This document shows positions 545 through 57,423 of a stretch of DNA of 64,000 bases, piece after piece. The translations under genes and the position numbers were made by a program. This stretch comes from an uncultured Verrucomicrobiae bacterium. Its GTDB lineage: Bacteria; Verrucomicrobiota; Verrucomicrobiia; Chthoniobacterales; UBA10450. The notes beneath the pieces were generated by a model. It was not told where the DNA came from and searched no databases. It was given only the letters and a program-made list of their open reading frames with translations. The stretch spans positions 672,001 to 736,000 of the forward strand of contig CAVSDR010000003.1 in NCBI GenBank assembly GCA_963726745.1, in the 5' to 3' direction. Position 1 is the stretch's first letter. Each line of letters starts with the position of its first letter.

Positions 545-1581
545 CGGCCCGCGAGCCGCCGGTAAGCCTGCGGATAAAATTCCAGCGGCTCCAATTCGTC
601 GGCTAATTCCGCGCGCGTCCGGTGCGCGCGGTCGGCATATTCCGCCTCGCTCATCCCCGCCGCCTGTTCGAGCAAACGCGCCAGCGCCGCGGGATCGTTT
701 GGTTCGCAAATGAGCGCCTGCTTGCCGCCCGCCTCCGGCAAGCCGCCATCGCGCGTGATGATGCAGGGCACGCCCAGATGCCGCGCCTCAATCGCGGTCA
801 GGCCAAAATCCTCCCGCGTATTTGGCGGCACCACCATCCAGCGCGCATCGCGAATCCGCGCGGTCTTGGTCGCCTCGTCGACGAACCCGAGCACTTCCAC
901 GCCGGTGATCCCGCGCTTCTGCACCGCATAAGCGATCAACTCGCGCAGCGGCCCATCGCCCATGAGCACGAGCGGCCACTGCGCGTGCTCGATCTGCGCG
1001 AGCGCGTAGGCGTCGATCAAGGTGTCGACCCCTTTGTTCGCGATCCAGCGGCCGATGAAGGCAAAACCCTTGCGCTCGTTAGGCGCGGTCCAGCCTTCAG
1101 GCAATTTCGAGACCGTTGGGACCTTGCGGCTGCCCGGGCGTTTCCGCAGCGGCTCCCAGGTGTCCCAGACAAACTGCGAGTTGTACCAGCGCTCGTCCGC
1201 CAGCGCCGCGGCCGCGCGCCAGAGTAACCGATGCGGCGTGCGCTCGCGCGTCATGTAGTTGTGGATCGTCATCGCCAGCGGCTTCCGGAAAAGTTTCGCG
1301 AGCAAGGTCACGTCCGGCGGCGCGTTTTGCAGATGAACCACATCGGCCCAGCGGATCACCTCGATCAAATCCCGGTCGGCCCCGCGGTCGGCGTAAATCA
1401 CTTCCTCGCCCTTGAGCATCGCCTTCAGTCCCGGCTGCAGCGCGAAGCCGGCGACGCGCTTGAAGCAAAGCCGCACCTCGAGGTCGGGCGCGCGCCGTGC
1501 GGCTTCCAAAACCGCGAGCACAAAGGCCTCGATCCCGCCATACGCGCCCATGCACGGGCTCACGATCACGACCTTGGTCAC
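541..1581 (-). CDS. GT4 family glycosyltransferase
   Basis: Likely start GTG 1581 overlaps the upstream stop. Motifs GGIEAF, FIGRWIANKG and EDFGLTAIEA (EX7E). The ORF-track start at 1980 lies inside the upstream gene. Confidence 0.88.
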   Translation of the reverse strand: MTKVVIVSPCMGAYGGIEAFVLAVLEAARRAPDLEVRLCFKRVAGFALQPGLKAMLKGEEVIYADRGADRDLIEVIRWADVVHLQNAPPDVTLLAKLFRKPLAMTIHNYMTRERTPHRLLWRAAAALADERWYNSQFVWDTWEPLRKRPGSRKVPTVSKLPEGWTAPNERKGFAFIGRWIANKGVDTLIDAYALAQIEHAQWPLVLMGDGPLRELIAYAVQKRGITGVEVLGFVDEATKTARIRDARWMVVPPNTREDFGLTAIEARHLGVPCIITRDGGLPEAGGKQALICEPNDPAALARLLEQAAGMSEAEYADRAHRTRAELADELEPLEFYPQAYRRLAGR

Positions 1582-2579
1582 GCGGCTTCCTCCAGCTTGA
1601 GCGCGCCGGCAAAACGCGCCGCGATCCGCGGCCAGGAAGCGGTCGCCTCCTGCCAGGCGCGCAACTTCTCCGCGCGGGCGCGCTGTTCCTCGTCCGCGAT
1701 TCCGGCGAGCCATTCCTCCGGATGCGTCAGCCAGCAGAGCGGCGCCGGACCCGTGGGCTGCGCGGCGAGAGACAGCACATTGAGGCCGTGCGCGGCGTAA
1801 GCCATGAACGTGCCCGACTTCGTGAGGCTGAGCGCATCCAATCCGAGCACGCCAAAGCTGGCCCCGGCCAGCTCGCGCGAAACCTCCACCTCGGGCAACG
1901 CGCCGCGTTGCGCAAAGCCGTCGGCTAATGGCAGCGCGCGCAAGAGCCGCGTCTCTTCGGGATCCAGGCCCGCGCCACAAGTCGTTAGGCGCGCAAGCCG
2001 TCCGGCGGCCGCAAGCGCGTGCAGGTCCTGGTGCATCGTTCGCAATGCCCGCAGACGCGACCCTTGTAAACCAAAGAGCACCGCCGCGCCCGGCGCGCGC
2101 GACCCTTCCGCGCCGGGGTGCACGCCGATCGTGGTCCCCACGGGGAGAAATTCCGCGCTGCTTCCGAGACGCCGCGCCTGGTCAGTTGTGGTCGTGAAGG
2201 TGGCATCGGCCGCGGCCACCAAGCGCAGGAGCGCGCGCCGGTGCAGCTGTTGCCGGAGGAAGTTTCGGTTCCACGGGGCGCAGAGGCTCCAGATTTCATG
2301 CACCATGACCACCAGGCAGCCGCCGGTGCGCTTCCGCCAATCGAGCAGCTCGCGCAGCAGCCGGCGCGGATAACCGCGGCGGTCGAACCCGTAGGCGCTG
2401 TATTGCACGAGCACGCGTCCGCCGCTTTCCGGCAAAGACAAAGCGCTGTCTCTTTTTGGGACGAGCACGCGCACGGGAAAACGCCCGCCCCATTCCTCGA
2501 GCAGGCGCAGGGTGTAATCGGCCACGCCGCCGGCGCCGCGCTCGATTTCCGGCGTCACGATGATCGTCTCTGCGCTCAT
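1578..2579 (-). CDS. GT-B fold glycosyltransferase-like protein
   Basis: GGVADYT, QYSAYGF, HEIW, KSGTFMAYAAHG and C-terminal SWPRIAARF; translationally coupled within the GT operon. Confidence 0.72.
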   Translation of the reverse strand: MSAETIIVTPEIERGAGGVADYTLRLLEEWGGRFPVRVLVPKRDSALSLPESGGRVLVQYSAYGFDRRGYPRRLLRELLDWRKRTGGCLVVMVHEIWSLCAPWNRNFLRQQLHRRALLRLVAAADATFTTTTDQARRLGSSAEFLPVGTTIGVHPGAEGSRAPGAAVLFGLQGSRLRALRTMHQDLHALAAAGRLARLTTCGAGLDPEETRLLRALPLADGFAQRGALPEVEVSRELAGASFGVLGLDALSLTKSGTFMAYAAHGLNVLSLAAQPTGPAPLCWLTHPEEWLAGIADEEQRARAEKLRAWQEATASWPRIAARFAGALKLEEAA

Positions 2580-3586
2580 AGCGCCGCCAGTTTCTGCGCG
2601 ACCACGGCCCAGGAAGCGTTCGCCTCATACCACGCGCGCAAAGCCTCCGCGCGTGCCTGCGCTTCGGCGGGTGCGATCGTGGCCACCTCCGCCGCCTGAA
2701 CGGTGTGCCGCAGCGGGACGCTCGCGATTACCGGACAAGCGTGCGCCGCCGCGGCCATGAAGGTGGTCGATTTCTGCCAGGTCTCCGCGGTGGCATTCGT
2801 TAGGCAAAACGCGGCATGCCGCAGAAGCCGGGAGACTTCTTCGGGCGGGAGCACCCCATGGCGGATGAGAGTCTCCTTCGGCAAACCGGCAAGCGCGTCG
2901 TCGCCTTCCGGGCCGATGAGATGCAACCGCCGAAGCCGGCCGGCGGCGTGCCAGCGGCGGAGGAAAGGCGCGAAAAGCTCCAGTGTTTGCCTGCGGCCAA
3001 AGGGCAGGCCGAAGAGGACGAAGTCGCCGGCAATTCGCTCCGCGGGTGCGGCGACCGGCTCGATATTCGAACTCACCGGGACAAGCAGCGCATCAATCCC
3101 GGCGAGCGTGTGCAACCGGGCGCGATGATGCTCGGTGTTGGTCACGACCACGTCGGCCATGGCCAGAAGTCGTTTCGTCACGCGGTCGGCCAGCCGGGAG
3201 AGCCAATAGTGTCGCGACGTCCACGGGAAAGCGCCCGGAAGCTCATGCACGAAAAGGAGGAGACGCGCGCCAGGGAAGCGCTGCTTCCATTTCGCGAGCA
3301 TGCGCGGCAGCCAGAAAGGAAAACCGAGCGGGTGATACGCGCGGCCGGCGTAGTGCAGCCAAACATCGGCCGCGCCCAGGCGTGCGAGCGCGCGGGCGAG
3401 CGCTGCGGGATCGCCGCCGAAAGCGGTAACTTTGGACTCGTTAGGCGCGGAGTGCTCGAGCACGAGGAACTCGCTCGGGCGCGCGCTTTCTGGCCAATGT
3501 TGCGCCAGCAACCAGCTGTAGGTGCCGATTCCGCAAACCGCAGGCGGCAGGCGGGTGGTGATCACGGCCAGCGGTTTCGCGTTCAT
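2576..3586 (-). CDS. GT-B fold glycosyltransferase-like protein, paralogue of 1578..2579
   Basis: CGIGTYS, HYAGRAY, HELP, KSTTFMAAAAHA and SWAVVAQKL occur in the same order as in the neighbour. Confidence 0.72.
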   Translation of the reverse strand: MNAKPLAVITTRLPPAVCGIGTYSWLLAQHWPESARPSEFLVLEHSAPNESKVTAFGGDPAALARALARLGAADVWLHYAGRAYHPLGFPFWLPRMLAKWKQRFPGARLLLFVHELPGAFPWTSRHYWLSRLADRVTKRLLAMADVVVTNTEHHRARLHTLAGIDALLVPVSSNIEPVAAPAERIAGDFVLFGLPFGRRQTLELFAPFLRRWHAAGRLRRLHLIGPEGDDALAGLPKETLIRHGVLPPEEVSRLLRHAAFCLTNATAETWQKSTTFMAAAAHACPVIASVPLRHTVQAAEVATIAPAEAQARAEALRAWYEANASWAVVAQKLAAL

Positions 3587-5880
3587 CGGGCTTCGAGCGC
3601 GGCGGCGATTGCGCCGGCAAAACGTTCCACTTGTCGCTCGAGCAAAAACTCGCGCTGCGCCAGCGCGCGGGCGTGCTCGGCGACGGCGCGGCGACGCTCC
3701 GGGGTGGCGGCCAGCGCGGCCGCGATCTCCCCCGCGGCCAACGTGGGCACGAGCAGCGCGGCGTCGTTGCGGCCTAACAAGTCAGCGGCCGCGGAGTCGG
3801 ATGGGCCGTGATAAAGGATGGGCAGGCCGCTGCCGAGGTAGGTGACCATTTTAGTCGACAAACTGTAGCGCCCAAAGTTCGCGTGTTCCGCGCCAAAAGG
3901 GAGCGGGAGGTAAAGCAGATCGGCCTCGGCAAAGTCGCGCTCCACCTCCGCCTCGGGCGCAAACGGGAGCACACGCACGCGCGCGCGACCGGCAAACACC
4001 TGCGGGCGCACATACTCGCAGCGCAGCGTGAGGCTGACACGCGTCTCCGGGTGCGCGCTTTCAAACAGCGCGATGCCCTCGAGGAGGGCGCGCAGGTTTT
4101 CCTCGTAGGGCATATGGAAGAGGCCCATGAAATAAATCCGCAGCACGCCCGGGACGCTCTGCTCGCGTGGCGGGGAAATCTGCGCAAGCCCATCGGTCAC
4201 GACGAGAAATTCGCGCGCGCCATAACGCTGGCAATATTCCCGGCCGAGCTCTTCGGAAATGACGAAGCGCGCGGCGGCGCCGAGCCAGGCGTCGCGCAAG
4301 GCGCGTTCCCGCGCCGCGGGGCGCTCGCGCATGGTGTAGCCAAGGTCATCGTGCAGGCTGACAAAAAAAGGAATCCCGAGGTCGCGCGCGACTGCTTGGG
4401 CCACGGCGAAATCGAGGCCGCTATGCGGAACCGCATGGATCGCCCGTGCGTTGAGCGCACGGCAACGCGCACGCAAACGACGACGGAACCGTCCGGCGAA
4501 CAACGGGCTGGAGAGCTTCGGCCAGGATGCCAGCCGGGAGTGTTCTACCCGCCCCCACGAGGGGCGCGAAGGGAGGTGTTCCTCTTGTGGCCACGGCGGC
4601 GGCGCCTTGGGCGAGGAGGCGATGCTGCGCCAGGCAAAGGGCACTTGCTCGAGCAACGCACGCAGAATGCGCGGACCGCCCCCTGGCGAACCAAGGCCAA
4701 ACGGCTGCACGCAGACGACAGGATTCTCCTTGGCGGAGAGCTCGGCGCGATAGGTCGCAAGCGTGGCCTCGGCGATCTCTTGCCAGGAAAAAGTCTCCGC
4801 CTGGCGAAGACTTGCCTCGGAGAGTTCGCCGTAGGTTTCCTCGCCGGCTCGAAGCAGCCGGATGATCTCGTCGGCAAAAGCGGCAACGTCTCCCAACGGA
4901 ACGAGGCCGTGCGGCAAAATCTCGCGCGGCCCGGGCGTATCGTAGGCGACCACGGGAAGCCCGGCGGCGATTTGCTCGAGGACCGCAAGCCCGAAACCTT
5001 CGACGTAGCTTGGGAAGGCGCCCACGGTGGCATCGGCCAGGAGTCGCGGAAGATCGTCCGGTTGGTAATCGGAGATCAACTCGATCCCTTCGGCCGCAGC
5101 CCCAAGGTCGTGCTCGATCACGGCGGGCGCGACCATGGTGCCGAGAAAACGGAAGCGCACCGCGGGCACAGCCGCGCGGATGCGGGCGATGATCGCAGCC
5201 CAATCGTGCGACCCTTTTCGCGGACTCCACATGCCGACGAAGCACACCCGCGCCTGCACAAGCCGCGTGGCCGGCGGGAGCGCGGCGGCGCGAAACTGCG
5301 CGCGGCGTTCGCTCGTTAGGCCATAGGGCTGGACCATGATCTTGCCGGCTATTTTAAGCTCGTGGCGCAGGCAGACGGCTTCGGTCTCGTTCGGCACGTT
5401 CACCAGGTCGGCGCGCTGCACGCTTTTCTCCGAAGCCTGCTCGAGCCGACGCCGGGTGAAGTTGTAGATCACGCGCCCGGCCAGTTTCCCGCGCGGCGGC
5501 TGGGGCCAGCGCTGCGCGATCGTGCGGTCGAAGCGATCGTAAAGCCGGTAAAGCCCGACCGAGCGCGCGACCAAAAGACCGCGGAACCCGAGCGATTCGG
5601 CGGTTTCGGGAAGCGTGCCGACGAGCGCGTCGATGACATCAAAGCGCTGCGCGTTTTGCCGAACGAACGCCCTGGCTTTGCGCAAAAAAAGGAGCTGACG
5701 CAGCGCGTAAGTGACGCCGGTTGCGGGCCCGCCGGGGAAGGCATCGGAAAAGCTAAATTTCTCGAACGTGTGCCCGCCGGCACGCCACTGCTCGGCCAGC
5801 TCCATCCAAACCCGTGGTGCGCCGAGGCGCTCGTCCCAGGGCGAATTGACGATCGCGAGGATGCGCAGCGGTCGGCTCAT
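3583..5880 (-). CDS. Two-domain glycosyltransferase (GT4 fused to a second GT-B-like unit), about 765 aa
   Basis: Start MSRPLRILAIVN at ATG 5880 overlaps the upstream stop. First unit has FPSYVEGFGLAVLEQ; second starts QPFGLGSPGGGPRIL and has STKMVTYLGSGLPIL. Confidence 0.82.
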   Translation of the reverse strand: MSRPLRILAIVNSPWDERLGAPRVWMELAEQWRAGGHTFEKFSFSDAFPGGPATGVTYALRQLLFLRKARAFVRQNAQRFDVIDALVGTLPETAESLGFRGLLVARSVGLYRLYDRFDRTIAQRWPQPPRGKLAGRVIYNFTRRRLEQASEKSVQRADLVNVPNETEAVCLRHELKIAGKIMVQPYGLTSERRAQFRAAALPPATRLVQARVCFVGMWSPRKGSHDWAAIIARIRAAVPAVRFRFLGTMVAPAVIEHDLGAAAEGIELISDYQPDDLPRLLADATVGAFPSYVEGFGLAVLEQIAAGLPVVAYDTPGPREILPHGLVPLGDVAAFADEIIRLLRAGEETYGELSEASLRQAETFSWQEIAEATLATYRAELSAKENPVVCVQPFGLGSPGGGPRILRALLEQVPFAWRSIASSPKAPPPWPQEEHLPSRPSWGRVEHSRLASWPKLSSPLFAGRFRRRLRARCRALNARAIHAVPHSGLDFAVAQAVARDLGIPFFVSLHDDLGYTMRERPAARERALRDAWLGAAARFVISEELGREYCQRYGAREFLVVTDGLAQISPPREQSVPGVLRIYFMGLFHMPYEENLRALLEGIALFESAHPETRVSLTLRCEYVRPQVFAGRARVRVLPFAPEAEVERDFAEADLLYLPLPFGAEHANFGRYSLSTKMVTYLGSGLPILYHGPSDSAAADLLGRNDAALLVPTLAAGEIAAALAATPERRRAVAEHARALAQREFLLERQVERFAGAIAAALEAR

Positions 5881-6710
5881 CGACGATGACAAAGGGCGTT
5901 CCAAAACTTGTGGCGCACGGGATTGACGTAATGCCGCAAAACAAGCGCCGGGGAGGAGTGCCGATCGGGGAAGACAAATTGGTCGTCGAGTTGGAGAACC
6001 CAGCGCCGCGGGTCGAGCGGCTGCGCGCCGTTCGCGTGCATCACCAAGTGGGTGAGGGTTTGATTCGTAAAGAACGTCGGCTCGCCTTCGAGCGCGAGGA
6101 AACGCTCGATGGCTAACGACCAGTCGAGCGGCGCGCGGAGGAAAAGGACGCCGGTGTTGACCGGTTTTACCTGCTCTCGCTCGCTGCGGAACAGGCGCTG
6201 GTCGGCGGAGAGGCCGCAATCGGCGAGATAAAAGGCGGGCGCGTCCTCCGGCAGGTGGAGCGCGGCCGCGCCAGCGAAGAAGAGGACATCGGCATCGAGA
6301 TACAGCGCCGGGCCGGAAACAGGCAGCGACATCACGAGCGCGAGTTGTTTCCCGGTAGGATGCTCGCGCAGGTAACGCTCCATCGGCGCGGGCACCTCGG
6401 GCACCCAATCGCGCACCTGGTCGACCGCCACCACCGGGTCAATCGCGCGCAGCAGCTCGAGGCTGCGGAGCGAATGCGTCCCGTCGGAGACGACGGTGAA
6501 CCGCCGCGGCCGACCGGCGTGGCGCAGGAAGGAGCGGATCGACGCGACCTGCTCCGGAAGCATGGCTTCGCCGGAATAGGCGTAGACATCAAAAGGCAAT
6601 GTGCGCGATGCCTTCACCGGACGCCGCACGATCCAGCGCAAGGCGGCCTGGTAAATTCGCCGGCAGGCCTGCGCCTCCGCACGCGCGAAGTGGTAGCCAA
6701 AATTCGGCAT
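5877..6710 (-). CDS. Putative GT-A fold (GT8-like) glycosyltransferase
   Basis: DxD motif YLDADVLF, NTGVLF, FTNQT, RHY; located inside the GT operon. Confidence 0.6.
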   Translation of the reverse strand: MPNFGYHFARAEAQACRRIYQAALRWIVRRPVKASRTLPFDVYAYSGEAMLPEQVASIRSFLRHAGRPRRFTVVSDGTHSLRSLELLRAIDPVVAVDQVRDWVPEVPAPMERYLREHPTGKQLALVMSLPVSGPALYLDADVLFFAGAAALHLPEDAPAFYLADCGLSADQRLFRSEREQVKPVNTGVLFLRAPLDWSLAIERFLALEGEPTFFTNQTLTHLVMHANGAQPLDPRRWVLQLDDQFVFPDRHSSPALVLRHYVNPVRHKFWNALCHRR

Positions 6711-6714
6711 GCGC

Positions 6715-8034
6715 TCAGGCAGCCGCGAGGCGCACGCTGCGGAAGCCGCGCAGGCTCAAGACGACGTTGAGGAGGAGATTTGGGAGCGCGGAGATGAGAT
6801 TGAAAAGGAGCACGCCGCGAACGCTGGTGAAATCGGTGAAAGGAATAAGCGCAGCCTGCGTGGCAAGGGTAAGCGGGATGTAAAGCCACGAGCCTTTGAT
6901 CCAGGCCTTGGAGGAATTGAGCGCCCAGAGCGTGCCGACAAAGGCGCTCGCAACCGCCCCTGCGACCATGAGCACGAGCTCGCGCTCGAGATGAAGATAT
7001 TTGCTCCCGAGAACGAGGAGAAAGATGTGCGGCGCGAGCGCAGCGACGAGCAGGATCCCGAGGCTGAACAACGCCACCGCGCCGACGATCCCAGCATATT
7101 GCCAGCGGAGGCGGCGCGGGCTTTGGCAGCGGGCGAAAGCGGGCGCAAAAACATTCGCGAGGAGATTGCTGAGGACGGAGAAGATCATTGCCAAACGCCC
7201 GAGCGCGCCGACCTCGGCCACGGCGCTGACGTGATTACCGAAGAAGCTGATCAGGAAGACGGTGATCTGACCCTGGAGGCAGAAGAAGATGGAATTTGCC
7301 GCCTGGTTGCGGATGAAGCCGCGCATCGCCAGGCGGTCTTCGTCGTTCGGCAAGGCGTGCAGGTCGATCATGCCGGCGACGTAGCGGCGGAGCATCCAGT
7401 ATTGCAGGAAGATGGCGCCGAGGCTGACGACGACCGCGACGCCGGCGTTGAGGAAGACGAACATCAGACCGCCAAGAACGAGCAGGCGTGCGATCGCGCC
7501 GGTGAGATCGATCGTGCGGATGCGGTCGATGTCGGAATGCAGCCGCGGGACCACGCTGAGCACGCCAACCGCGAGCTGGACTAGGAGACCGAGCAGAATG
7601 ACGCCGATGAGCAAGGCGGTGTAAGCCGGCGAGGCGCCGTTCTTGACCAGCATGAAGGCGAGAATGGGCGTGACCACGGCCATCGCGAGCAGGCCGAGTT
7701 TGCGGCGCAGATGCAACGCGGTCACAACCAGCTGGCTAAAACGCGCGCGGTCGCGCCAGACGCGGCCGCCAATGGCGACGAGGGCAATGCTGATGCCGAC
7801 ATCCGCGAGCACGTTGATCGTGCCCTGCATGGTGTTGGCGATGGTGAAAAAGGCGTATTCGCGCTGAGACAATTGCCTAACGAGTAGAATGCCGCTGGCA
7901 AAACCAAGCAACTGCACTGCGGCCTGGGCGAAAGCAAAAGTGCCGACGACGCGGGCGCGCTGCATCGCGCGACGGATCATGGGCGCGCTCGTTTCCGCGA
8001 GCGCAGGCGACGAGATGGAACCGAAAAAGCTCAT
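6715..8034 (-). CDS. Polysaccharide flippase (Wzx/MOP-like), multi-TM
   Basis: Hydrophobic C-terminal ~440 aa of the 1173-aa ORF (AQAAVQLLGFASGILLVRQLSQREYAFFTIA). Has its own ATG at 8034 (alternative 7980). Confidence 0.75.
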   Translation of the reverse strand: MSFFGSISSPALAETSAPMIRRAMQRARVVGTFAFAQAAVQLLGFASGILLVRQLSQREYAFFTIANTMQGTINVLADVGISIALVAIGGRVWRDRARFSQLVVTALHLRRKLGLLAMAVVTPILAFMLVKNGASPAYTALLIGVILLGLLVQLAVGVLSVVPRLHSDIDRIRTIDLTGAIARLLVLGGLMFVFLNAGVAVVVSLGAIFLQYWMLRRYVAGMIDLHALPNDEDRLAMRGFIRNQAANSIFFCLQGQITVFLISFFGNHVSAVAEVGALGRLAMIFSVLSNLLANVFAPAFARCQSPRRLRWQYAGIVGAVALFSLGILLVAALAPHIFLLVLGSKYLHLERELVLMVAGAVASAFVGTLWALNSSKAWIKGSWLYIPLTLATQAALIPFTDFTSVRGVLLFNLISALPNLLLNVVLSLRGFRSVRLAAA

Positions 8035-8092
8035 CGCACGATCGGGCCGGCGGGCGCTTCCGCCGCGGCCGCCGGTTTCGCCATGAATGCGG

Positions 8093-10236
8093 CTAGGAAG
8101 ACTGCGTGCCGTGACCCTGCGCGTGCGCGGGGAGCTTGCGCGGCTCTTCCGCCACCGGCGTGTTGTAGTACTCGGAGTACCTGGTAGTAGTAGGTACTCG
8201 GGCAGCGAGGTATCGACGTAATTCAAGATCACGCCGGGGACATTGACCTGCCGATTGTAGAGCAACTCGAGCGACTTCTTGGTCAGGCGCGCAGAGGTGT
8301 AGGAAAGGCGGACGACGAAGAGGGTGGCGTCAATCTTCGGCGCGAGGCTGGTGGTATCGTCCGCCGCCAAGACCGGCGAGCTGTCGATGATGATGTAATC
8401 GTACTGGTGGTAGATTTCCTGGAGGAAGCGATCGGTCGATTCGCGCAGGAGATGTTCGCTCGGCTGCGAGAGCGTGCTGCCGCGCGGGAGGAGGAAGAGA
8501 TTTTGGTAGGCCGTGGGCACCACCACTTCCTGCCAATTGACCTCGCCCTTGAGGACCTCGGAGAAACCGACCCGCGACGAGATATCGAAGGCTTCGCGCT
8601 GCGCGCCGCGGCGGAGATCGCCATCGATCAGGAGCGTCTTCGCCCCGGAAAGCGCGAAGGTAATCGCGAGGTTGGCAGAGACGGTCGATTTGCCTTCGTT
8701 AGGCACCGCGCTGGTGACGAGAAGCGTCTTTGGGCGCGGCCCTTCGTAAGGCATGAAGAAAATAGACGACCGGATGTTCCGATAGCTCTCGGCGAAGATG
8801 TGGCGGGCGTCGTCCGGCTGGAGCAGGGAGACGCGGCCCTTGGCTTTTTCGCGCGGGATCTGGCCGAGGACGTTCTCGGAGAAGTGGCCCTGGAATTCGC
8901 CAAAGGAAGCCATGCGGTCGTCGATCCGGTCGAGCAGGAGAAGAATCGCGAGACCGGCAAGCGCGCCGCCGCCGAAGCCAATGAGCAAGCCCTTAAGCAG
9001 GCCCGGGCGCACGGAAGTCGGCACGGTGGCCTGCTCCATGATCGAGACCTGATCGCCGCCGTCGACGACTTGGGAAACGCCGACTTCCTTGAGGTTGTTC
9101 GTGAGGCGATCGTAGAGCGTCTTGAGGCGATCGACCTTGCCCTTGAGGCGATTGAAGACCGCGAGGCGCTGGCTAAGGTCGAGCGCCTTGGCTTCCCATT
9201 CCTTCACATTCGACTGGAGGTTTTCCATCTGCTTGCCGATGGAATTGCGACGAGTGGCCAGCTTCTCCACGGCATCGGAACGGAAGAGTTGGATGAGGTT
9301 TTCCTGCTTCGCGATCTCGTCGTTTAATTTCAGGATTTTCGGGTGCTTCGGGCGCAGGTCTTTCGAGAGCGTGTCGCGCTCGGCCTTGAGCAATTGCACC
9401 GCTTGCTTGGCCTTGAGGTAATCGGCCTCCGGACCGACATCGGAGAACGGCATAACCTGCTGCGAGGCCTGATCGGGGGCATCGCTTTCACCCTTATTTC
9501 CCGAGGGCGAACGGTCGAGATTCTGGTCGAGGTCGAGTTTTTCGAGAAGCTCGTACTCCGTCTTCAGCGCAGCGTATTGCTGGTTCAGTTTTACCAGGTA
9601 GGCCGCGGCGCTGTTTCCTTCTTCCTGGATGAAGCCGATGTTGTTCTGCTTCTGGAAGTCGAGCATTTCGTCCTCGCCATTGCGCAGATCTTTCTCCACC
9701 TGGATGAGCTGCTCGGTGATGGCGGTGGTGACGTTATGCCCCTGGTCCTCGCGCATGCCTTTTTTGAAGTCGAGATACTTCTGCATGACCGCATTCAGGT
9801 AGGCCTGGGTGTACTCCGGCGAACTGCCGATGGCCTGGAGGTCGAAGATCGAGGTGCGCGGCTTTTGCACCACGTTGATGTCGACTAAAACCGGCTGGAG
9901 CTCGGGATGCGTCGAGCGCACGAGCGCCTCCGCGCTGCGGCGGACTTCCGCGCTCTGCATGAGTTGAATCTGGGTGCCGTAGAAATTGACGCTGTCCTCA
10001 CTGTAGACGGCGTTTTGGGCGAGGTTGAGCTTGCCCGCGAGCATCATCTTGCTCGTGGAAAGAAACGAGGGCGGCGTCTGGTAAATCAGCCAGGCCTGAA
10101 TGAAAACGCCGAGGCAGATGGTGAGCAGAGGAATCCACCAACGGCGCAGGAGCAGCGCTTTGTAGCGATGCACCCGGGTGATGAAGGAGTTACTCCAGGA
10201 CGAGGCGGAAGAACGATCGGGAACGGGCGCGGCCAT
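8093..10236 (-). CDS. wzc: Polysaccharide co-polymerase/BY-kinase (Wzc/GumC); two apparent +1 errors near 8180-8195
   Basis: Two TM segments flank a coiled coil; TSAVPNEGKS (Walker A), LLIDGDLRR, IIIDSSPV. Removing two duplicated bases restores the Tyr cluster PEYYYYQYSEYYN and a TAG stop at 8093. Confidence 0.88.
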
Positions 10237-10239
10237 ACA

Positions 10240-10924
10240 TTACATGTTGATCAAGCGCTGCGGGACGAAGATCTGGTCGCCGGGATGGACGACCGCATCT
10301 TCCTCGGAGTGACCTTCCTCGATCACGCGCTTGAGATCGACGATTACATCCTGGCCGCCCTTGCGGGTGAGTTTCACTTTGCGCTTGTTCGCGAAATCGC
10401 CGAAGCCGCCGGCGCGGATGACCGCTTTGCTGACGGTGTATTCTTCGTCGGCCGGGATTTCCTGTGGGCCCGGGCCCTTGACCGAACCGATGACGTAGAC
10501 TTTGCCGCGCGACTTTTCGCTGACGTGATCGACCGCAATGATCACGGTGGCGTGATAGTAGTATTCCTTTTCGAGCGCGGCCTTGACCGAGTAAGCCAGC
10601 TCCTTCGAGGTGCGGCCGGCCGCCTGGACGAGGCCCACATAGGGCACTTCGAGCTGGCCGTTATCGTTCACGCGCAGGCGCTGCGATTCGTTATCGCGAT
10701 CCTCGACCACACGGAAGCTAACGAAGTCGTTAGGGCCCAGCCGGGTGCGATCATCGAGCACATTCATCGAGTTCGTGCGCATGACCGTGCTCGTGGTCGG
10801 AGGCTCAGCCGCCGGGGCGGCGCGGGGGATCGACTGCGGCGGCGTGGAGACACTCTCCTGGGCCAGGAGTGAGGTGTTCGCCAGAGGCGGCGAGCACGAG
10901 GAAACGATAAGCCCAGTCTTTCAT
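10240..10924 (-). CDS. Polysaccharide export OPX/Wza-like protein (Poly_export + SLBB); one apparent +1 error in the signal region
   Basis: RLGPNDFVSFRV...LEVPYVGLVQAAGRT, VYVIGSVKGPG, AGGFGDFANKRKV, PGDQIFVPQR. GGAG precedes ATG 10924; length mod 3 = 1. Confidence 0.8.
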
Positions 10925-10942
10925 GCTCCGTTAAGGTCCAGC

Positions 10943-12256: not shown

Positions 12257-12589
12257 AGGTCAGGCGATTACTGGTGTTCGAAGTTAGCAGGAGCGGTACC
12301 ACGGCCGCCAATATTCCAGATTGTGGCCGTGGTTCGTAACGGGAATTTCCCTTTCCCGGGGATCTCGTTAGACAAAATTTTGTTCTCCAGCTGGGCGTTG
12401 TTTCGGGGAAGTTTTACTGGGGGGCCGCGAGACGGCGCAAGACAAATCGCCCGGGGTAACCGGGTGCTTCTGCCCTCAGGGATGCTTCACTGGATGGCCC
12501 CACGCGCGCTTCCTTTGCTTGAAGAGACCGCCTCCCGCAATGGAAAATTTTTCGCCGTTGGCAAGCTCCAAGCTTTTTAGGAAAGCGAA

Positions 12590-13804: not shown

Positions 13805-13999
13805 GCGTCGCGGCTTCTGCTTCTGTCATCCGGTTTGAGGCTGGCGCAGGCCAGGAAGCCAACAGCGCGCACCGCCTGCCGCTCGAAAGCGCCACGTGCT
13901 CATGATCATCCACCGGCTCTTGGTTTCTCTCGGCTGCTTCTGTTGCACCGCGCACTCGGCGGTCGCGACTTTACTCTGGATGCTCCTGCGCGTGCGCTC

Positions 14000-17641: not shown

Positions 17642-17648
17642 GAGCAGC

Positions 17649-21883: not shown

Positions 21884-21892
21884 CCGACGACT

Positions 21893-42633: not shown

Positions 42634-42684
42634 AGGATGCGGCAGGCGAACTGAGCGAAAGTCTGGACCGGGCCTTCCATTTAC

Positions 42685-42722: not shown

Positions 42723-42770
42723 GGAATAATCGTAGGCACTCGATTTTCCCGCATCTAAGGTGAAAGCTGT

Positions 42771-45848: not shown

Positions 45849-45853
45849 AGGGC

Positions 45854-48800: not shown

Positions 48801-51003
48801 AAAGTGCAGCGGCGTGTCGGCTAAATTAGCCGACGCATTCTGGCTGCCGTTGACCCGGAAGACGGTCGCGGAAAGCCCGCCATGGGGCGGCGCCGGCGGC
48901 GCGGGAGGAACGCCGCTGCCGATAACGCTTAAATTGCCGTCTTCGTTATTCGGGACAAAGAGCTCGCTCGTGACGGGGTTGAAGGCGAGGCCCATCGGAT
49001 AGCGCCCGACGTCGATTTGCTGCTGAAAGCTGTTGTTCGCGCCGTTGAAGACCGTGATCCGGCCGTTCGCGTCGTAGCCATTCGAATTATCGGCCACATA
49101 AACTTTGTTCGTCGCCGGATCGACCGCCACATCACTCACGGCATCGCCGTTGTTCGCGTGCGTGTTGGAAAAGGTGGTTTCCGTCTGGTCGGTCGCGCCA
49201 TCGATCACGGTCACGCTGTTGTCGACCGAGCCCGCGCCGGTGTTGGCCACGTAGATCTTGTTGGTCTGCGTATTGACCGCCATCGGCCCGGGAACCGCCC
49301 CGGCGCCGACCATGCCTAACGAGTTAAAACTGGCATCCAAAATCTGGACCATTCCGCCGCTCGGGCGGCCGGAGATGTAAATCTTGCCGGTCACGGGATT
49401 AACCGCCAACCCGATGAGACTGTTCATGATTGGGATGCTGGTGCTGACGGTGTTGTTCTCGGCGTTGATCACGTAGAGCCGGGGCTCGTTCGTGCCCGGA
49501 TCGACGCTCGTGAGGTAAACCCGGTGCCGGGTGTCATCGACCGCGAGCAAGAGCGAACCCACGAGGTAGCCGGTGCTGATCGGAATGGAAGTTACGAGCT
49601 GATTGTTTGCGCCATCGATTACATCGAGGTAGGCGATCTTGGTTCCGTCGTCGGCGCTCTGCTCAACGCGCGGGAGGTAGATGCGATTGAGCGCGGAACT
49701 GACTGCGACCAGACGCGCGAGCAGGAACTTCGCATTGTACGAGCCCGTGTTTGCACCGATGACCGGGACGCGCGCCAGGATGCTGTGATCGGCGCCGTTA
49801 ATCACAACCAGCTCGGCGGCCTGCTCGTCGATCACATAGACACGGTTCGTCTGCGTGTTGACCGCCGCTTTGTAGGGGCGGTAGCCCAGCACCACTTTGC
49901 TCAACGTGCCGTTGGCCACGTTGAGAATACCGACTGCGTTCCGAAGCTCGGCGAAGGTTTCGCCAAAATTGTAGTCGAGAATGAAGAGCCGCCCGGAATC
50001 GAAGCTAACCGCCCCCGCTCCATGGGCGAAGCCGGGCCGGTCGCTCAAGTCGGCGGCGTTCAAGGCGAGAATCCTGCCAGGATCGGTCCCGATGATCGGC
50101 GTCGCCAAGTAGAGCGTGTTTGTCGCCGGATCGATCGTCATGCCGCGGAAATCGGCGGGGTTGAGGCCGGCAGTGCGGGAGGCGACGATCCCTCCGCTGC
50201 TATCGAAAACATAAAGGCGGCTTACGCCGTTGCTCGTGTTTTCCGCCCCGAAGACATACGTGCGGCCGTCCGCGGGATCGTAAACGCCGGACGAGGCGTT
50301 GAACGCCGACGGCACGGTGAACGGAGTGGCCGTGTCGGAAGCACCATCGATGACCGCGCCGTTCCCGTTACGGGCGAAAAGAAGGAGCTTGTTGGCCGCC
50401 GGATTGGCAATGAGGACATGCGGTCCGAGGCCCGCACCGCTGTCGAAAGTGCCGAGGATGGCGTGAGTCGGCCCGTGGACCACAGTCACAACGCCGTATT
50501 GGTTCACGAAGTAAACTTTGTGCGTGACGCTGTTCACCGCGAAAGCCTGGTAGCCATAAGGCTGGCCCTGCACCGGCACATCGGCGTTTGCCACGACCGC
50601 ATCGTTTTGCAGCGTGCGGATGTAATACTGCAGACCTTTTTGACCGAGGAGGTAAACGCGATTCCCGTCCGCCCCGGTGCTTTCATCAGCGGCGATGCTG
50701 TAGGGACTGAAGCGATTTGTGACGTTTCCGACGACCTCACGCCCGAGATCGATATCGGCGACACGCGCACCCGTCGTCGTGTCGATCACCTTGACGGCGA
50801 GATTCTGGAAGCCGGACGCCGCCAAGCCCGCGACATAGAGGCGATGGGTGGCGTGATTCAGCGCCATAACCTGCGGGTTGTAAGCGTCCGGTCCGGGCAG
50901 GAGTTCGATCGTGTCGACAAGGGAAGTGCCCGCGGAGGCTTTGCCTACGGTTAACGCCAGCAGCGCAGACGAGGGCGAGAACGAGTGGTTTTGAGAAACT
51001 CAT
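45854..51003 (-). CDS. Giant secreted protein D (~1715 aa): YncE/YVTN-type propellers + shared core + octapeptide repeats + twin NISTR; apparent +1 errors near 46515 and 50960-51000
   Basis: AVNxxTNKIYVAN...VTVIDGAT repeats; same core as A-C. ORFs 50737..51003, 46230..50867 and 45854..46561 join; total length mod 3 = 2. Confidence 0.82.
47115..47306 (-). repeat. 24-bp/octapeptide tandem repeat, 8 units, in protein D
   Basis: LIGPNGGS LLSEGGLG LIAPNGGT LISQDGAS LISQDGGS IISNDGAS LIGQDGAS LITNDGGS. Confidence 0.9.
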
Positions 51004-51034
51004 AAATGGGGCGCAATGGTGCTTCTTTTCTTTC

Positions 51035-51072
51035 TCGCGGAGAATTCAGGTGAATCGGCTCACGAAATTTTC
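51035..51072 (-). promoter_or_regulatory. Candidate ECF promoter of protein D
   Basis: Minus strand GAAAATTTCG-TGAGC(51062-51058)-N19-GCGA(51038-51035), 32 nt before ATG 51003, in the divergent gap with ECF sigma 2. Confidence 0.68.
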
Positions 51073-51078
51073 TATAAT
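51050..51078 (+). promoter_or_regulatory. Possible sigma70 promoter for the ECF2-kinase operon
   Basis: Perfect TATAAT at 51073-51078 with a weak GTGAAT 17 nt upstream; 12 nt before ATG 51091. Confidence 0.35.
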
Positions 51079-51090
51079 TTTCGGCACGCC

Positions 51091-51696
51091 ATGAAGTTGC
51101 CCGAATCCGCGCCCGCACCCGGCGCCCCGGACTCCGCGGATTCGCTGCCGGAATTCCTCGCCAGCCTCGTGCCGGAGACGGCTTCACCGCGGGAGATGGA
51201 TGCCGCTTTGCCGGCGCTCTACGAGGAACTACGCGAGCTCGCCGCCGGCTATCTCCGGCGCGAACGGCCCGACCACACGCTCCAGCCGACCGCCCTGGTC
51301 CACGAGTCCTACCTACGCCTGCGCCAGCAGCACACGGTCGATTGGGGCAATCGCCTGCAATTCCTCTCCATCGCCGCGCGGATGATGCGGCGGATTCTCT
51401 CCGACTACGCCACCGCGCGCGCGGCGGAAAAACGCGGGGGCGACGCGACCCGGCTGCAATTAGACAGCGCCTTGGAATTTTGCGATGAACGCGCGGTCGA
51501 TCTCGCCGCGGTCGACCAGGCGCTGCGCGATCTCGAGTTGCTGGATAAACGCCAGGCGCAGGTGGTGGAGCTGCGCTTCTTTGGCGGGCTCACCATCCCC
51601 GAGACCGCGGAGTTGATGGCGCTCAGCGAAGCGACCGTGAAGCGCGAGTGGGTCACCGCGCGCCGCTGGCTCCAGCGCGAGATCGGCGGCCACTAA
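51091..51696 (+). CDS. ECF sigma factor 2 (TIGR02999/ECF43-like)
   Basis: HTLQPTALVHESYLRL, AARMMRRIL, VVELRFFGGLTIPETAELM...TVKREW; close paralogue of sigma 1. Confidence 0.92.
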   Translation: MKLPESAPAPGAPDSADSLPEFLASLVPETASPREMDAALPALYEELRELAAGYLRRERPDHTLQPTALVHESYLRLRQQHTVDWGNRLQFLSIAARMMRRILSDYATARAAEKRGGDATRLQLDSALEFCDERAVDLAAVDQALRDLELLDKRQAQVVELRFFGGLTIPETAELMALSEATVKREWVTARRWLQREIGGH

Positions 51697-51699
51697 GCC

Positions 51700-54109
<2,410 letters not shown>

Positions 54110-54124
54110 CCGGCACTTTCGCGC

Positions 54125-54562
54125 TCAGCGACGCGCCTGGCCTAACAAGTCCTGCGCGAGAGACGATCCGGGATTTTCCGCGGCGAAAGCGGCGAACTCC
54201 CGCTCGGCTTCCTCGCGCGACCCGGCCCGCGCGGCCACGACTGCACGCACGAGATGCGAATCGCCCGCGAGCCGCTGCCACTCCGCGAGTTCCGCCGGCG
54301 GCTCACCGAACCGCACCTGGCCGGTGCGGAGGGTTTCGCGGAGAGCGTCGCGCAACGGCGGTGGCAATTTCGCAAAAGCCGGGGTGCGGTTGCCCGGCTC
54401 GAGAATGATCTCCCGCGGGCCATCGCGCAGGGCCGTGAACGGCGCCGAGATTTGCCGGATGGTGATGACCCACCAAAGCCCGCCGACAGCCAGCGAGATC
54501 CCGATCGCCAGGGGCAAAGCCCAGCCAAAGAATCGCGCCGACTCGTCGCGCGGCGTGCTCAC
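54125..54562 (-). CDS. Small single-TM hypothetical protein with C-terminal TPR-like helices
   Basis: GTG start overlaps the glgA stop; TM FFGWALPLAIGISLAVGGLWWVI. Confidence 0.6.
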   Translation of the reverse strand: MSTPRDESARFFGWALPLAIGISLAVGGLWWVITIRQISAPFTALRDGPREIILEPGNRTPAFAKLPPPLRDALRETLRTGQVRFGEPPAELAEWQRLAGDSHLVRAVVAARAGSREEAEREFAAFAAENPGSSLAQDLLGQARR

Positions 54563-56010
54563 GCGGCGCGCGCCTGGCCACTCGCGAGGCGGGCGTAGAT
54601 TTCCTCGTAACGCTCGGCCGCCTGCTGCCAGGAGAAGCTTTGCGTCATCGCGCGGCGCACGAGGGATTGCCAGGTTTCCGCCTCAGTGCGGTAGATCACG
54701 GTCGCGCGCTTGATCGCATCCCAGAGCGCTTCCGCGGAGGGATCGTAATAGAGGAAGCCGTGGCCGGTGTCGCTCGTCGGATCATAATCCTCGATGATTT
54801 CCTGGATGCCTCCGGTCGCGCGGGCCACCGGAAGCGCGCCGTATTTCAAGCTATACATCGCGCTCAAGCCGCTCGGCTCGATCCGCGACGGGATGAGCGA
54901 AATGTCGGAGCCGGCCTCGATCAAGTGCGCCAGGGTTTCATCGTAGACTCGGCGGTAGGCGAACTTCGCGCGGTATTTCTTGGCCGCGATCGCGAGCGCG
55001 CGTTCATAGGCCGCGTCGCCTTCGCCGAGAATGATCAGGCGCACATCGTCGGAGAGCAGGCGATCGAGCACCGGCATGAGCGCATCGAAACCTTTCTCCG
55101 GCACCAGGCGCGTGACCATGCCGAAGACCGGACCGTCCGGCGACGGCGTGAGGTTTAGGCCATCGAGCAAAAGCTCGCGGCAGGTGCGTTTCCCGCGCAG
55201 GTCGAGCGGCTCAAAAGTCTGCGGCAGGAGCGGATCGCTCGCGGGATTCCAGCGCGCGTCATCCGCGCCGTTGAGAATGCCGGCTATTTTCGCCTGCTGC
55301 TCGCGCAGGACGACGTCGAGCCCGCAGCCGCCTTCGGGCGTGAGCATCTCGCGGCGAAAACGCTCGCTCACGGTCGTGACCTGGTCGGCGTAAAGCAGGC
55401 CGGCTTTGAGCAAATTCATCCGGCCGAAAAATTCCACCCCGGTCGGGCGGAAGTAGCGCTCGGGAAGATTCGTTAGGCCAAAGTCCAGGCCCCAAAAACT
55501 CCCCTGCTCCGCGAGATGATGAATCGTAAGCACGGTGCGAAATGGCAGGCGCCATTCGCGCACGAAGACCGGCACCAGCGCCGCGGCCCAATCGTGCACA
55601 TGGAGCACTTCCGGCGTGGGCGTGAGCCGGCGGGCCAGCTCGAGCGCGGCTTTGCTGAAGAAGATGAAGCGCGCGGCGTTATCCTCGTAGGCCACGCCGT
55701 GCTCGCCGTAGATCCCGGCGCGATCGAAAAACTCATCGCAGCGGACAAAGAAAAGCTGCACCCCGCCAGCGGTCCGCCCCGCGAGAAACTCGGCCACATA
55801 GGTCTTCGAGCCGAGGCGCACATCCGCGGTCACGCCGGTGTCTTTCCGTTGGACCTCCGGGTTCTCGCGAATCTCGCGATAGAACGGAAGCACGATCCCG
55901 ATCTCGTGCCCCTGCGCGCGCAGCTCCCGCGGGAGCGCCTCGAGCACGTCGACCAAAGCGGTGGCGCGGGCCAACGGCGGGCCCTCCGGCGAGATCATCA
56001 GGATGCGCAT
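54559..56010 (-). CDS. glgA: Glycogen synthase (GT5)
   Basis: HVHDW, TIHHLAEQG, GILNGAD, RLVPEKG, PSRIEPSGL, ATGG. The N-terminal KTGGL motif reads RATAL. Confidence 0.85.
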   Translation of the reverse strand: MRILMISPEGPPLARATALVDVLEALPRELRAQGHEIGIVLPFYREIRENPEVQRKDTGVTADVRLGSKTYVAEFLAGRTAGGVQLFFVRCDEFFDRAGIYGEHGVAYEDNAARFIFFSKAALELARRLTPTPEVLHVHDWAAALVPVFVREWRLPFRTVLTIHHLAEQGSFWGLDFGLTNLPERYFRPTGVEFFGRMNLLKAGLLYADQVTTVSERFRREMLTPEGGCGLDVVLREQQAKIAGILNGADDARWNPASDPLLPQTFEPLDLRGKRTCRELLLDGLNLTPSPDGPVFGMVTRLVPEKGFDALMPVLDRLLSDDVRLIILGEGDAAYERALAIAAKKYRAKFAYRRVYDETLAHLIEAGSDISLIPSRIEPSGLSAMYSLKYGALPVARATGGIQEIIEDYDPTSDTGHGFLYYDPSAEALWDAIKRATVIYRTEAETWQSLVRRAMTQSFSWQQAAERYEEIYARLASGQARAA

Positions 56011-56015
56011 AGAAG

Positions 56016-56057
56016 CCGAAGGTCGAACGCCGAACGCTGAACGTCCAACGTCGAATT
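56016..56057. repeat. Degenerate heptamer tandem repeat (6 units) filling the cca-glgA gap
   Basis: CCGAAGG TCGAACG CCGAACG CTGAACG TCCAACG TCGAATT. Confidence 0.7.
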
Positions 56058-57423
56058 AAGACTCCCCGGTTCGACGCTCGGCCTTTCCGAAACTCCCGGC
56101 CTCGATCTCCGTCTTCACCCACGCGAGCGCCTCCTCCCGGTCGGCAAACTCCCCTTCCAGCTGCCGCGTCTCGATCGTTTCCAGGATGGCCCCAAAGTGC
56201 GGACCGGGCCGCAGCCCCAGCGCGATCAAATCATCGCCGCGCACCAGCGGTGGCGGGATGATCGGCTCGGCGGCAAACTCCGCGCCTTTCGCAAGCAGGA
56301 ACTCGTAGTTATCCAGCATCCCGTGGCTGCTCGCGCAGTCGACCCGATGCAGCTCCAATTCGTCGGCAAAAGTCGGCCGGGCCATGAAACGCTTCAGCTT
56401 TGCCACCCGCATTTTCGGGACGTCTTTGAAGACCATGTGCTGCCGCACCGCCTCGACCGTGGCCTCGATCTCCGCGCGCGAAAAGCGCAGCCGCTGCATC
56501 ACCGCCTCGGTCATCTCCGCGCCTACGCGATCGTGGCCGTTGAACCGGATGCGGCCGTTCTCGTCCACCGCCGAGGTGGGCGGCTTGCCGATATCATGAA
56601 AGAGCACGCTGAAAACCAGCGGGAGCGAGCAGTCGTTAGGCAGCAACTTCAGCATCAAGCGCGTGTGCACGAAGACGTCGCCTTCCGGGTGAAACTGCGG
56701 CGGTTGCGCGCAGCCCTTCATCGCCGCCACTTCCGGCAACACCTCCGCCAGAAGTCCGCTCGCATCGAGCAAATCCCAGCCGCGCACCCGGCCAGGCGCG
56801 AGAAAAATTTTCACCAGCTCCTCGCGGATGCGCTCCGCGCTGATCTGCCCAATCGCGCCGGCTTCCCTAACGAGTGCCTCCCAGGTTCGCGGCTCGATCT
56901 CGTAGTCTAAAGTGGTCGCGAAACGGACCGCGCGCAGCAGCCGCAGCCGGTCCTCCGCAAAGCGCTGTGCGGGATCGCCAATCGCGCGGATGAGCTTGCC
57001 GGCTAAATCCGTCCGCCCGCCGACATAGTCGATTACCTCCTCGGCCCCGGGATCGTAGAACATCCCGTTGATCGTGAAATCGCGCCGTTGCGCGTCTTCC
57101 TCGGCAGTCGAAAAATGCACTTCCTTTGGCCGGCGACCATCGATGTAGGCACCGTCGGAGCGGAAGGTCGCGACCTCGAATTGCCGCCCTTCCTCCAGGA
57201 CCACGATGACGCCAAAATGCGCCCCGACCGCGTAGGTGCGGCTGAAGATTTTTTGCACCTGCTCGGGCCGGGCATCGGTCGCGATGTCGAAGTCCTTCGG
57301 GGTGACGCCGCGGAGAAGATCGCGCACGCAACCGCCGGCGAAATAGGCGACGTGCCCGTGCTCGCGCAGTTGCGCCACGATTCGGCGCGCGCTCGTTTCC
57401 TCGTTCGCCTCGCTGCTTGTCAT
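56056..57423 (-). CDS. cca: CCA tRNA nucleotidyltransferase with HD domain
   Basis: AGGCVRD...KDFDIAT, RRDFTIN, EDRLR, HPEGDV, HDIGKP. Lacks the GRRF-type poly(A) polymerase signature (has VGAHFG). Confidence 0.85.
   Translation of the reverse strand: MTSSEANEETSARRIVAQLREHGHVAYFAGGCVRDLLRGVTPKDFDIATDARPEQVQKIFSRTYAVGAHFGVIVVLEEGRQFEVATFRSDGAYIDGRRPKEVHFSTAEEDAQRRDFTINGMFYDPGAEEVIDYVGGRTDLAGKLIRAIGDPAQRFAEDRLRLLRAVRFATTLDYEIEPRTWEALVREAGAIGQISAERIREELVKIFLAPGRVRGWDLLDASGLLAEVLPEVAAMKGCAQPPQFHPEGDVFVHTRLMLKLLPNDCSLPLVFSVLFHDIGKPPTSAVDENGRIRFNGHDRVGAEMTEAVMQRLRFSRAEIEATVEAVRQHMVFKDVPKMRVAKLKRFMARPTFADELELHRVDCASSHGMLDNYEFLLAKGAEFAAEPIIPPPLVRGDDLIALGLRPGPHFGAILETIETRQLEGEFADREEALAWVKTEIEAGSFGKAERRTGES

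Follow-up and report, generated by a model that had tools for sequence, protein, structure and literature searches.

A hyper-abundant nine-base word and its dialects in one family of Chthoniobacterales, with candidate explanations

Why should one 9-mer recur through the genes of a bacterium far more often than base composition predicts? The question is raised by a stretch of 64,000 nucleotides (contig CAVSDR010000003.1, positions 672,001 to 736,000; "the window" below is this whole stretch) from an uncultured member of the Chthoniobacterales. A reading of its letters alone, the sequence-only reading, had noted 24 exact copies of TCGTTAGGC, here called M1, and had proposed a lineage-specific uptake, repair or nucleoid-protein signal. 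The window lies within a source genome (G000) of 3.41 Mb in 7 contigs with 64% GC; M1 is non-palindromic, and its core 8-mer is CTCGTTAG. We find that M1 is a real, family-wide and apparently undescribed word. Its genomic behavior suggests, with a probability that we put just short of even, a self-signal for DNA transfer of the kind of the DNA uptake sequence (DUS) and the uptake signal sequence (USS), which would have evolved independently in one family of this order. We take that family to be probably the one of Candidatus Udaeobacter, a dominant soil bacterium.

Enrichment, placement and origin of M1

All 24 coordinates and strands of the sequence-only reading proved exact. As it had estimated, chance predicts less than one copy per window: 100 dinucleotide shuffles gave a mean of 0.29 and a maximum of 2. 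Its figure of about 19 independent copies also stands, five copies sitting in paralogous contexts (34660/39149/46414, 34919/39408, 43895/52231 and 44168/52508). The copies of M1 are as follows.

1076..1084, plus strand: P-N-E frame, in a minus-strand glycosyltransferase gene
1982..1990, plus strand: L-T frame
2797..2805, plus strand: L-T frame
3438..3446, plus strand: P-N-E frame
5313..5321, plus strand: L-T frame
7875..7883, minus strand: V-R frame in the assembly, doubtful because public contigs are one base short at both 8181 and 8193; wzc-like gene
8696..8704, plus strand: P-N-E frame, in the Wzc-like P-loop; a public-run contig has the same sequence
14613..14621, minus strand: between predicted genes
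20243..20251, plus strand: S-L-G frame, glycine dehydrogenase (GcvP)
24086..24094, minus strand: S-L-G frame, flavin amine oxidoreductase
34660..34668, plus strand: L-T frame; context as at 39149 and 46414
34919..34927, minus strand: S-L-G frame; context as at 39408
35048..35056, minus strand: S-L-G frame
39149..39157, plus strand: L-T frame; paralogous context
39408..39416, minus strand: S-L-G frame; paralogous context
43895..43903, plus strand: protein-kinase open reading frame (ORF) 43316-44914; context as at 52231; frame not settled
44168..44176, plus strand: protein-kinase ORF 43316-44914; context similar to 52508
46414..46422, plus strand: paralogous context; frame unlike its paralogs as assembled
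49314..49322, minus strand: S-L-G frame
52231..52239, plus strand: protein-kinase ORF 51700-53001; frame not settled
52508..52516, plus strand: S-L-G frame
53477..53485, plus strand: S-L-G frame, tetratricopeptide repeat (TPR) region
55470..55478, plus strand: L-T frame, glycogen/starch synthase
56633..56641, plus strand: P-N-D frame, gene of the CCA-adding/poly(A) polymerase family

The four reading frames described for the window hold genome-wide, with 445 copies read as S-L-G, 231 as L-T, 213 as P-N-E/D and 71 as V-R. The copy at 8696 does read VPNEG in a Wzc-like protein, as the sequence-only reading had pointed out; the argument that it drew from this Walker A motif is weak, and PNEGKS/T is an ordinary form of the loop. 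Sequencing data were consulted in the form of three small-share DNA runs from one study, which covered 9 kb only in pieces; no RNA run was listed. A public-run contig spanning 8532-8734 of the window, with the copy at 8696, showed zero differences, and the other six copies of that 9 kb were not confirmed letter by letter.

G000 holds 1,312 copies of M1 (631 and 681 on the two strands), or 385 per Mb, and every contig is rich in the word (324-531 per Mb). According to gene calls made with our own script rather than a standard annotator, 996 copies (76%) lie wholly within predicted genes, 139 across gene ends and 177 outside. The enrichment survives both the codon- and the dicodon-preserving null: the 2,763 predicted genes of at least 300 nt contain 960 copies, against 10-16 in 10 synonymous-codon shuffles (about 78-fold) and 48-69 in 10 shuffles within amino-acid pairs. 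The proposal that the pressure acts on the DNA rather than on the protein is thus supported (960 against about 12 in the protein-preserving shuffle).

Positions 1 and 3-7 of the word (T-GTTAG) are strict, their single variants being no commoner than in the shuffles. Positions 2, 8 and 9 tolerate change, and the variants TTGTTAGGC, TCGTTAGCC, TCGTTAGGG and TCGTTAGTC are each enriched about 10 to 20-fold. On the 5' side C and then A are mildly preferred, together with A/T five bases out; past a few bases the flanks are unrelated. M1 contains no palindromic 4-mer. Its mark on codon choice is strong: among in-frame TCG-Leu-GGC triples 449 of 497 use the rare TTA and none uses TTG or CTA, whereas TTA occurs in 0 of 397 control GCG-Leu-GGC triples, and the M1 core accounts for 776 of the 2,858 TTA codons in G000. 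The tripeptides encoded by M1 are raised 1.6 to 2.6-fold, P-N-E ranking third and S-L-G fourth of all tripeptides in excess over a dipeptide model.

The distribution of M1 along the chromosome is even with respect to strand. In windows with a clear GC skew 506 copies were oriented one way along the replichores and 458 the other (p = 0.13), whereas the KOPS-like control word GGGNAGGG was polar in the same test (187 vs 52); forward and reverse counts of M1 are also balanced family-wide, one- and two-contig genomes included. Chi and KOPS, which the sequence-only reading had listed among its analogues, are therefore not supported. Copies avoid each other in G000, with 33 pairs at 10-200 bp vs 95 expected, and two control words showed no such deficit. 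M1 is scarce in the low-GC classes and in those with low GC at third codon positions (low GC serving as a proxy for recent gain), with 0-1.8 copies per 10 kb below 60% GC vs about 7 above 64%, and a gap of 35 kb on contig C7 covers a polysaccharide cluster. It is richest between convergent genes (19 copies in 20 kb, 945 per Mb). An apparent orientation-dependent spacing, with fewer divergent than convergent pairs at 200-400 bp in G000 (27 vs 54, p = 0.004, in a bin picked post hoc), was dropped after five other genomes gave 319 vs 331. No periodicity was seen in the tables of M1 pair distances, which were not subjected to a spectral test, and no dif-like pattern was found in G000.

To trace the origin of the copies, G000 was compared by protein-guided alignments with 400 kb of G097, a genome of another genus with 69% amino-acid identity. 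Of 77 aligned M1 copies of G000, 26 were kept exactly and only two were gapped, whereas 9% of random 9-mers were identical between the two genomes. Under a stricter control, 18 of 41 S-L-G motif triples were identical, vs 4 of 219 other triples centred on TTA or CTA. Unshared M1 sites fall on poorly conserved residues (46-50% identity vs 69%), and 231 of 252 unshared copies of G097 come with at least one amino-acid difference. The scarcity of gapped sites, the kept copies and the amino-acid differences together show that M1 arises in place by substitution, alters proteins and is then held between genera. Such properties demand a process that recognizes sequence, favors each site very strongly, has no chromosomal direction and plays no essential role, and whose benefit in G000 levels off within a few hundred bases.

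Family range and two further words

M1 was counted in 301 genomes from 36 genera of the family, drawn from a larger group and including 11 marked as unpublished. All contain the word, with 13 to 4,633 copies; 298 exceed 27, the highest count outside the family, and about 70 exceed 1,000 by our own count from the table. Density reaches about 1,350 per Mb in G097. Outside the family we found 1-19 copies in 16 genomes of the order, 0-18 in 249 of the phylum (of which a few overlap with the 16) and 0-27 in five more, so that the lineage-specificity assumed by the sequence-only reading was borne out. Its comparison with the behavior of DUS/USS or HIP1 likewise gains support from the codon null, the distribution, the alignments and the family counts. 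Among 113 loci of viral contigs from four paired-motif scans none was M1-dense outside short tandem repeats; since the number of family phages in the collection is unknown, this is evidence neither way.

The sequence-only reading, sound in its count of M1, had passed over a second word in the same window, a third in relatives and a match to integron attC ends. The second is M2 (WTTAGCCRRC), counted on either strand, and the third M3 (ARGATCGACAW); both behave like M1. In the window M2 is placed as follows.

461..57007, either strand: M2, 23 copies, with starts at 461, 598, 1920, 7731, 12886, 15704, 16664, 21212, 26289, 27860, 30082 and 34460
34715 to 56998, either strand: further starts of the same 23, at 34715, 38423, 38949, 39204, 44398, 46097, 46214, 46469, 48816, 52741 and 56998

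The extended pattern of M2 is approximately RAAWTTAGCCRRCRMnWTS, graded over 18 bp. Its spread is patchy: there are 958 copies in G000, 394 in G011, 254 in G015 and 190 in the unpublished genome G055, and at most 90 in the remaining genomes of the 34 and 171 searched. Core neighbors of M2 and of M1 are rare in G000, which indicates that both words are maintained there now. The strict inner core and soft edges of M1, and the graded pattern of M2, would suit a binding protein rather than a methyltransferase, as judged from the patterns.

M3 surfaced in samples of M1-poor relatives. By our count it reaches at least 500 copies in 40 of 171 family genomes (one of them unpublished), with a maximum of 4,600 in G075, alongside 1,803 copies of M1; 96 genomes of other families hold 0-34. 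Genera differ in the words that they carry, M3 being high and M1 low in g30, g38 and g50, the reverse holding in g41, both being abundant in g42 and little of either occurring in g22. A direct reading of the three patterns on one strand shows that they share TYGYYR. Extra dialects suspected in G072 and G088 proved to be tandem repeats.

Integron ends, candidate proteins and competing readings

The core CTCGTTAG, the second most enriched 8-mer of G000 genes, recurs at integron attachment sites. From 20 integron loci of the family 155 attC sites were picked heuristically, and an alignment of 20 sequences folds as expected, with compensatory change in 16 of 26 pairs. CTCGTTAG plus RY ends 146 of the 155 sites; no more than two 8-mers recur in 90% of these sites, and CTCGTTAG is one of the two. 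TTCTCGTTAG stands at the likely attI end in 10 of 18 intI upstream regions among those listed, and IntI scores above the cut-off in 155 of the 301 family genomes. The general attC primers HS287 and HS286 end in CGTTAGSC and TTGTTAGVC (PMC2927473, PMC10963911); as printed in the accessible text of these papers, their 3' ends equal M1 and its two commonest variant types. The accessible parts of two further sources state that the chromosomal integrons of Vibrio are fed cassettes by transformation (PMC12614218) and that IntI inserts cassettes at genomic attG sites (10.1101/2022.09.11.507474), and a genome-wide enrichment of the att core is not described in those parts of either. An 8-base match located at the crossover point is rare, but many known motifs were available for comparison; weighing the two, we judge the chance that the match between M1 and attC is more than coincidence to be about even. 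If it is, a receptor tuned to integron cassette ends might fish for cassette-bearing DNA, its bias might have spread the word chromosome-wide and later receptor copies might have drifted to M2 and M3; we regard this extended scenario as improbable.

An integron-linked origin could also dispense with uptake, IntI or an att-acting host factor driving the att core into the chromosome or binding it there. The shared ends, the likely attI ends and the IntI frequency given above speak for it, and several results make it very unlikely. Endings of the word in G000 are dominated by GC (GC 1,312, CC 240, GG 134, TC 123, AC 80, GT 52, AT 7), whereas those of family attC sites are dominated by AT (AT 65, GT 34, AC 25, GC 22), and two places upstream most genome copies have A where most attC sites have T; M1 is therefore not a template copy of the family attC ends. 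M1 is isolated, without cassettes: G000 has 23 attC hits, eight of them ending in M1, and only a fragment of intI, so that only 8 of 1,312 M1 copies are attC ends and the rest lack the hairpin of R'' and R' and the L boxes. GTTAGGC fits the crossover core GTTRRRY, and the enriched variants ending in CC, GG and TC do not. M1 density does not follow IntI: the motif-rich G097 and G024 gave no IntI hit, the motif-poor G072 and G226 did, and genera g24 and g41 have similar IntI rates with an approximately tenfold difference in M1 density. G028, outside the family, shares these attC ends (9 of 13 copies in the loci fetched are attC ends), and its genome holds 19 copies in all. M3 has no att counterpart, and attC ends are unchanged in the M3-rich G090 and G102. 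An IntI-derived protein in G000 was also rejected as a candidate, a profile of family IntI proteins having matched only XerC, XerD and the intI fragment.

Some further features of these integrons may be recorded. About 17 attC sites are clustered without an integrase at C6:736-745 kb of G000, with a few single sites elsewhere, and the intI fragment at C2:58.6-59.1 kb adjoins an attC. Chromosomal integrons are frequent in the family (L079-L098); their attC sites are homogeneous, at about 123 bp each, and the likely attI is conserved. Upstream of this probable attI lies an ATTAGAC box that resembles the left part of M2; no fixed distance between M1 and M2 of the kind seen in the attI layout was found.

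M1 matches point by point the genomic description of uptake sequences in the accessible text of PMC2817400. Like the USS of Pasteurellaceae and the DUS of Neisseriaceae described there, it is a non-palindromic word within their range of 9-11 bp, occurs at 0.4-1.5 per kb in rich genomes, on both strands and, in G000, more evenly than at random, arises by substitution, raises particular tripeptides, falls on poorly conserved residues and is scarce in putative recent acquisitions; dialects by clade are a further common trait (PMC3630211, as far as accessible). With HIP1 of cyanobacteria (GCGATCGC) and the alternate HIPs it shares, according to the accessible parts of PMC13756078 and PMC4390886, hyper-abundance, location in coding DNA in several frames, spread by substitution, conservation, replacement by other words in some lineages and an unsettled function, which the first of these papers still treated as open in 2026; in addition, M3 contains GATCGA. 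M1 would work like both, though it cannot be assigned to either. It differs from USS/DUS in sequence and phylum, in lying largely within genes and in having almost no terminator pairs in G000, two dissimilar words share one genome here, and a ComP-like or ComN-like receptor was not found; a 2025 preprint, in its accessible text, still treats the USS receptor as predicted (10.1101/2025.06.16.659825). From HIP1 it differs in that none of the three words is palindromic and no word-tracking methyltransferase was found. We found no description of M1, M2 or M3 in the literature searched, which left supplements aside and covered few subscription journals.

Under the uptake-signal reading, fragments with TCGTTAGGC would be preferred by a sequence-specific protein that acts in uptake or in the first processing steps, so that point mutations creating the word would be recombined into the chromosome more often than those destroying it. 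Over time this molecular drive would fill all positions that the proteins tolerate. Related proteins with shifted specificity could give rise to M2 and M3, and two of them may run in one genome. Biased transformation would explain by one known mechanism what was observed of abundance, distribution, substitution origin, conservation and protein effect, together with the clade-wise dialects; it presupposes transformable cells and a binder of this kind at work during uptake. Competence machinery is partly present. Of 231 family genomes, 217 have an intact ComEC; G000 showed DprA together with 16 hits of the prepilin type and three to secretins, and the ComEA of the family is a thermonuclease-like (nuclease-fold) domain fused to a helix-hairpin-helix (HhH) domain (L391-L394). 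Three minor-pilin operons were seen (L151, L152 and L153), two of which end in paralogous PilX-like DUF7305 proteins and one of which lies near dprA and ssb; the DUF7305 protein varies from 0 to 5 copies per family genome and has no solved-structure match by sequence.

A number of observations weigh against an uptake signal. Most of the positive evidence would fit HIP1-like behavior or intracellular binding equally well. The pair deficit at 10-200 bp is not seen in 240 kb of G097, where M1 is about four times denser, and M1 and M2 show no mutual avoidance, although a single uptake step common to both would be likely to produce it. The inverted pairs in terminators that characterize DUS/USS hardly occur, with one convergent pair at 60 bp or less among the 1,312 copies in G000 (G097 has 6 inverted pairs among 348 copies in 240 kb). 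ComEC occurs in motif-poor genomes too (25 of 26 in g22). In G000 comEA is split (C4:17.2-17.9 kb and C2:230.1-230.3 kb) with a truncated HhH part, yet M1 shows no decay; across the family a ComEA-type HhH was found in only 67 of 121 genomes without tracking the words, being present in 7 of 8 genomes of the motif-poor g22 and not found in G068 (100% complete, 852 copies of M1) or most M3-rich genera. In partial pilin sets from nine genomes none of the pilin families follows a motif, the closest counterpart of the FimT-like operon in G000 is that of G072, a genome without the motifs, and the PilX-like protein occurs in 66 of 121 genomes and was not found in the M1-rich G013, G024 and G049. PilX-like tip pilins, FimT operons and other pilins were accordingly rejected as the receptor, and the check for a ComP-like receptor or a matching methyltransferase that the sequence-only reading had recommended identified neither in these sets and in a regular-expression screen. 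No receptor was identified in the minor part of the proteome that was screened against family libraries, and the determinant may lie in the remainder.

Several of these points fit intracellular sequence-specific DNA-binding proteins better, which might serve nucleoid organization or the loading of repair or recombination factors. Weak per-site selection in very large populations would then maintain one site per 0.5-3 kb, and paralogs differing in specificity would account for the three words. Such a binder is consistent with every distributional result and copes better than uptake with two words lacking mutual avoidance, with ComEA and pilins that do not track the motifs and with the rarity of terminator pairs. 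Against it, no such protein was identified; gaps of 20-35 kb are tolerated and copy numbers range from 13 to 4,633 within the family, so that the sites are not essential; and the frequent amino-acid change at M1 sites would come about more easily by drive than through a small benefit per site. We consider it possible, though on balance unlikely. A ratchet of the HIP1 type, modeled in the accessible text of PMC4390886 as methylation-directed mismatch repair, has little probability: methylation within the word would steer repair toward fixing newly arisen sites and guarding existing ones, up to the point where spacing is saturated. It predicts the substitution origin, the loss of one-step neighbors (0 TTG of 497) and self-avoidance, and an orphan beta-class methyltransferase is present in 10 of 10 family genomes tested. 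M1, however, is non-palindromic down to its 4-mers, the graded 18-bp pattern of M2 is unlike a methyltransferase site, and the orphan enzyme was discarded as the determinant, being the same in M1-rich and M3-rich members and occurring in 12 of 100 outside genomes, five of them with 0-27 copies of M1. The regular-expression survey, which may miss some enzymes, otherwise turned up only one C5 enzyme and two type I subunits, encoded where the motifs are sparse. A polar signal of the Chi or KOPS kind, read by RecBCD/AddAB or by FtsK, has in its favor only that it too would be a short, non-palindromic repeated word; M1 uses rare rather than common codons, and its balanced orientation, beside a polar control, refutes replichore-polar action and leaves the idea highly improbable, although a Chi acting solely on incoming double-stranded DNA would escape this refutation. 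The chance of an artefact of base calling, codon bias or repeated elements is negligible. The assembly does have frameshift-like errors, but the enrichment is about 78-fold over the protein-preserving null and recurs in hundreds of separate assemblies within one family, the flanks are unrelated, few copies are attC ends, and the stretch at 8532-8734 is unchanged in the public-run contig; the idea is refuted.

Few lineages are known to carry hyper-abundant words that remodel the proteome: two proteobacterial families have uptake sequences, and cyanobacteria have HIP1. The present family is large, with at least 36 genera sampled, and has three words whose densities vary 300-fold and which replace or join each other by clade, so that the protein behind their accumulation, and drive against selection, can be tested by gene-content profiling alone. 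Should the words act as uptake signals, DNA to which they are added ought to enter these so far uncultured and unmanipulated cells. If the attC match is causal, it would provide an origin for an uptake sequence and tie transformation to cassette capture; and if a receptor was indeed tuned to cassettes, an abundant uncultured lineage would hold a third independent uptake-sequence system, and the first whose origin can be traced. M1, M2 and M3 can be used at once as binning markers for the family.

Other observations in the window and the genome

Contigs from two public runs lack one base at each of positions 8181 and 8193 of the window, and the long Wzc-like ORF 6715-10236 is for this reason probably frameshifted by assembly error. 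Two paralogous units of an extracytoplasmic function (ECF) sigma factor, a Ser-Thr kinase and TPR genes lie at 43316-45848 and 51016-54109, and the kinase-TPR genes of both are split across two frames as assembled. Several C1 genes of G000 are near-identical to genes at C6:1.03 Mb, which suggests an overlapping or duplicated assembly at the C1 / C6 end.

The tetranucleotide GTAC is strongly avoided in G000, with an observed/expected ratio of 0.16, compared with 0.29-0.58 in samples of the relatives G097, G015, G102 and G087 and 0.9 in one outside genome. This avoidance may be linked to the conserved orphan methyltransferase (P0001).

A comparison of the window with Rfam gave no match. The minus strand at 26393-50867 carries large paralogous genes for secreted proteins with beta-propeller and Ig domains (DUF5122, PD40, He_PIG), which share their C-terminal parts, and a serine hydrolase gene of the Pfam Beta-lactamase (PF00144) family lies at 21893-23065.

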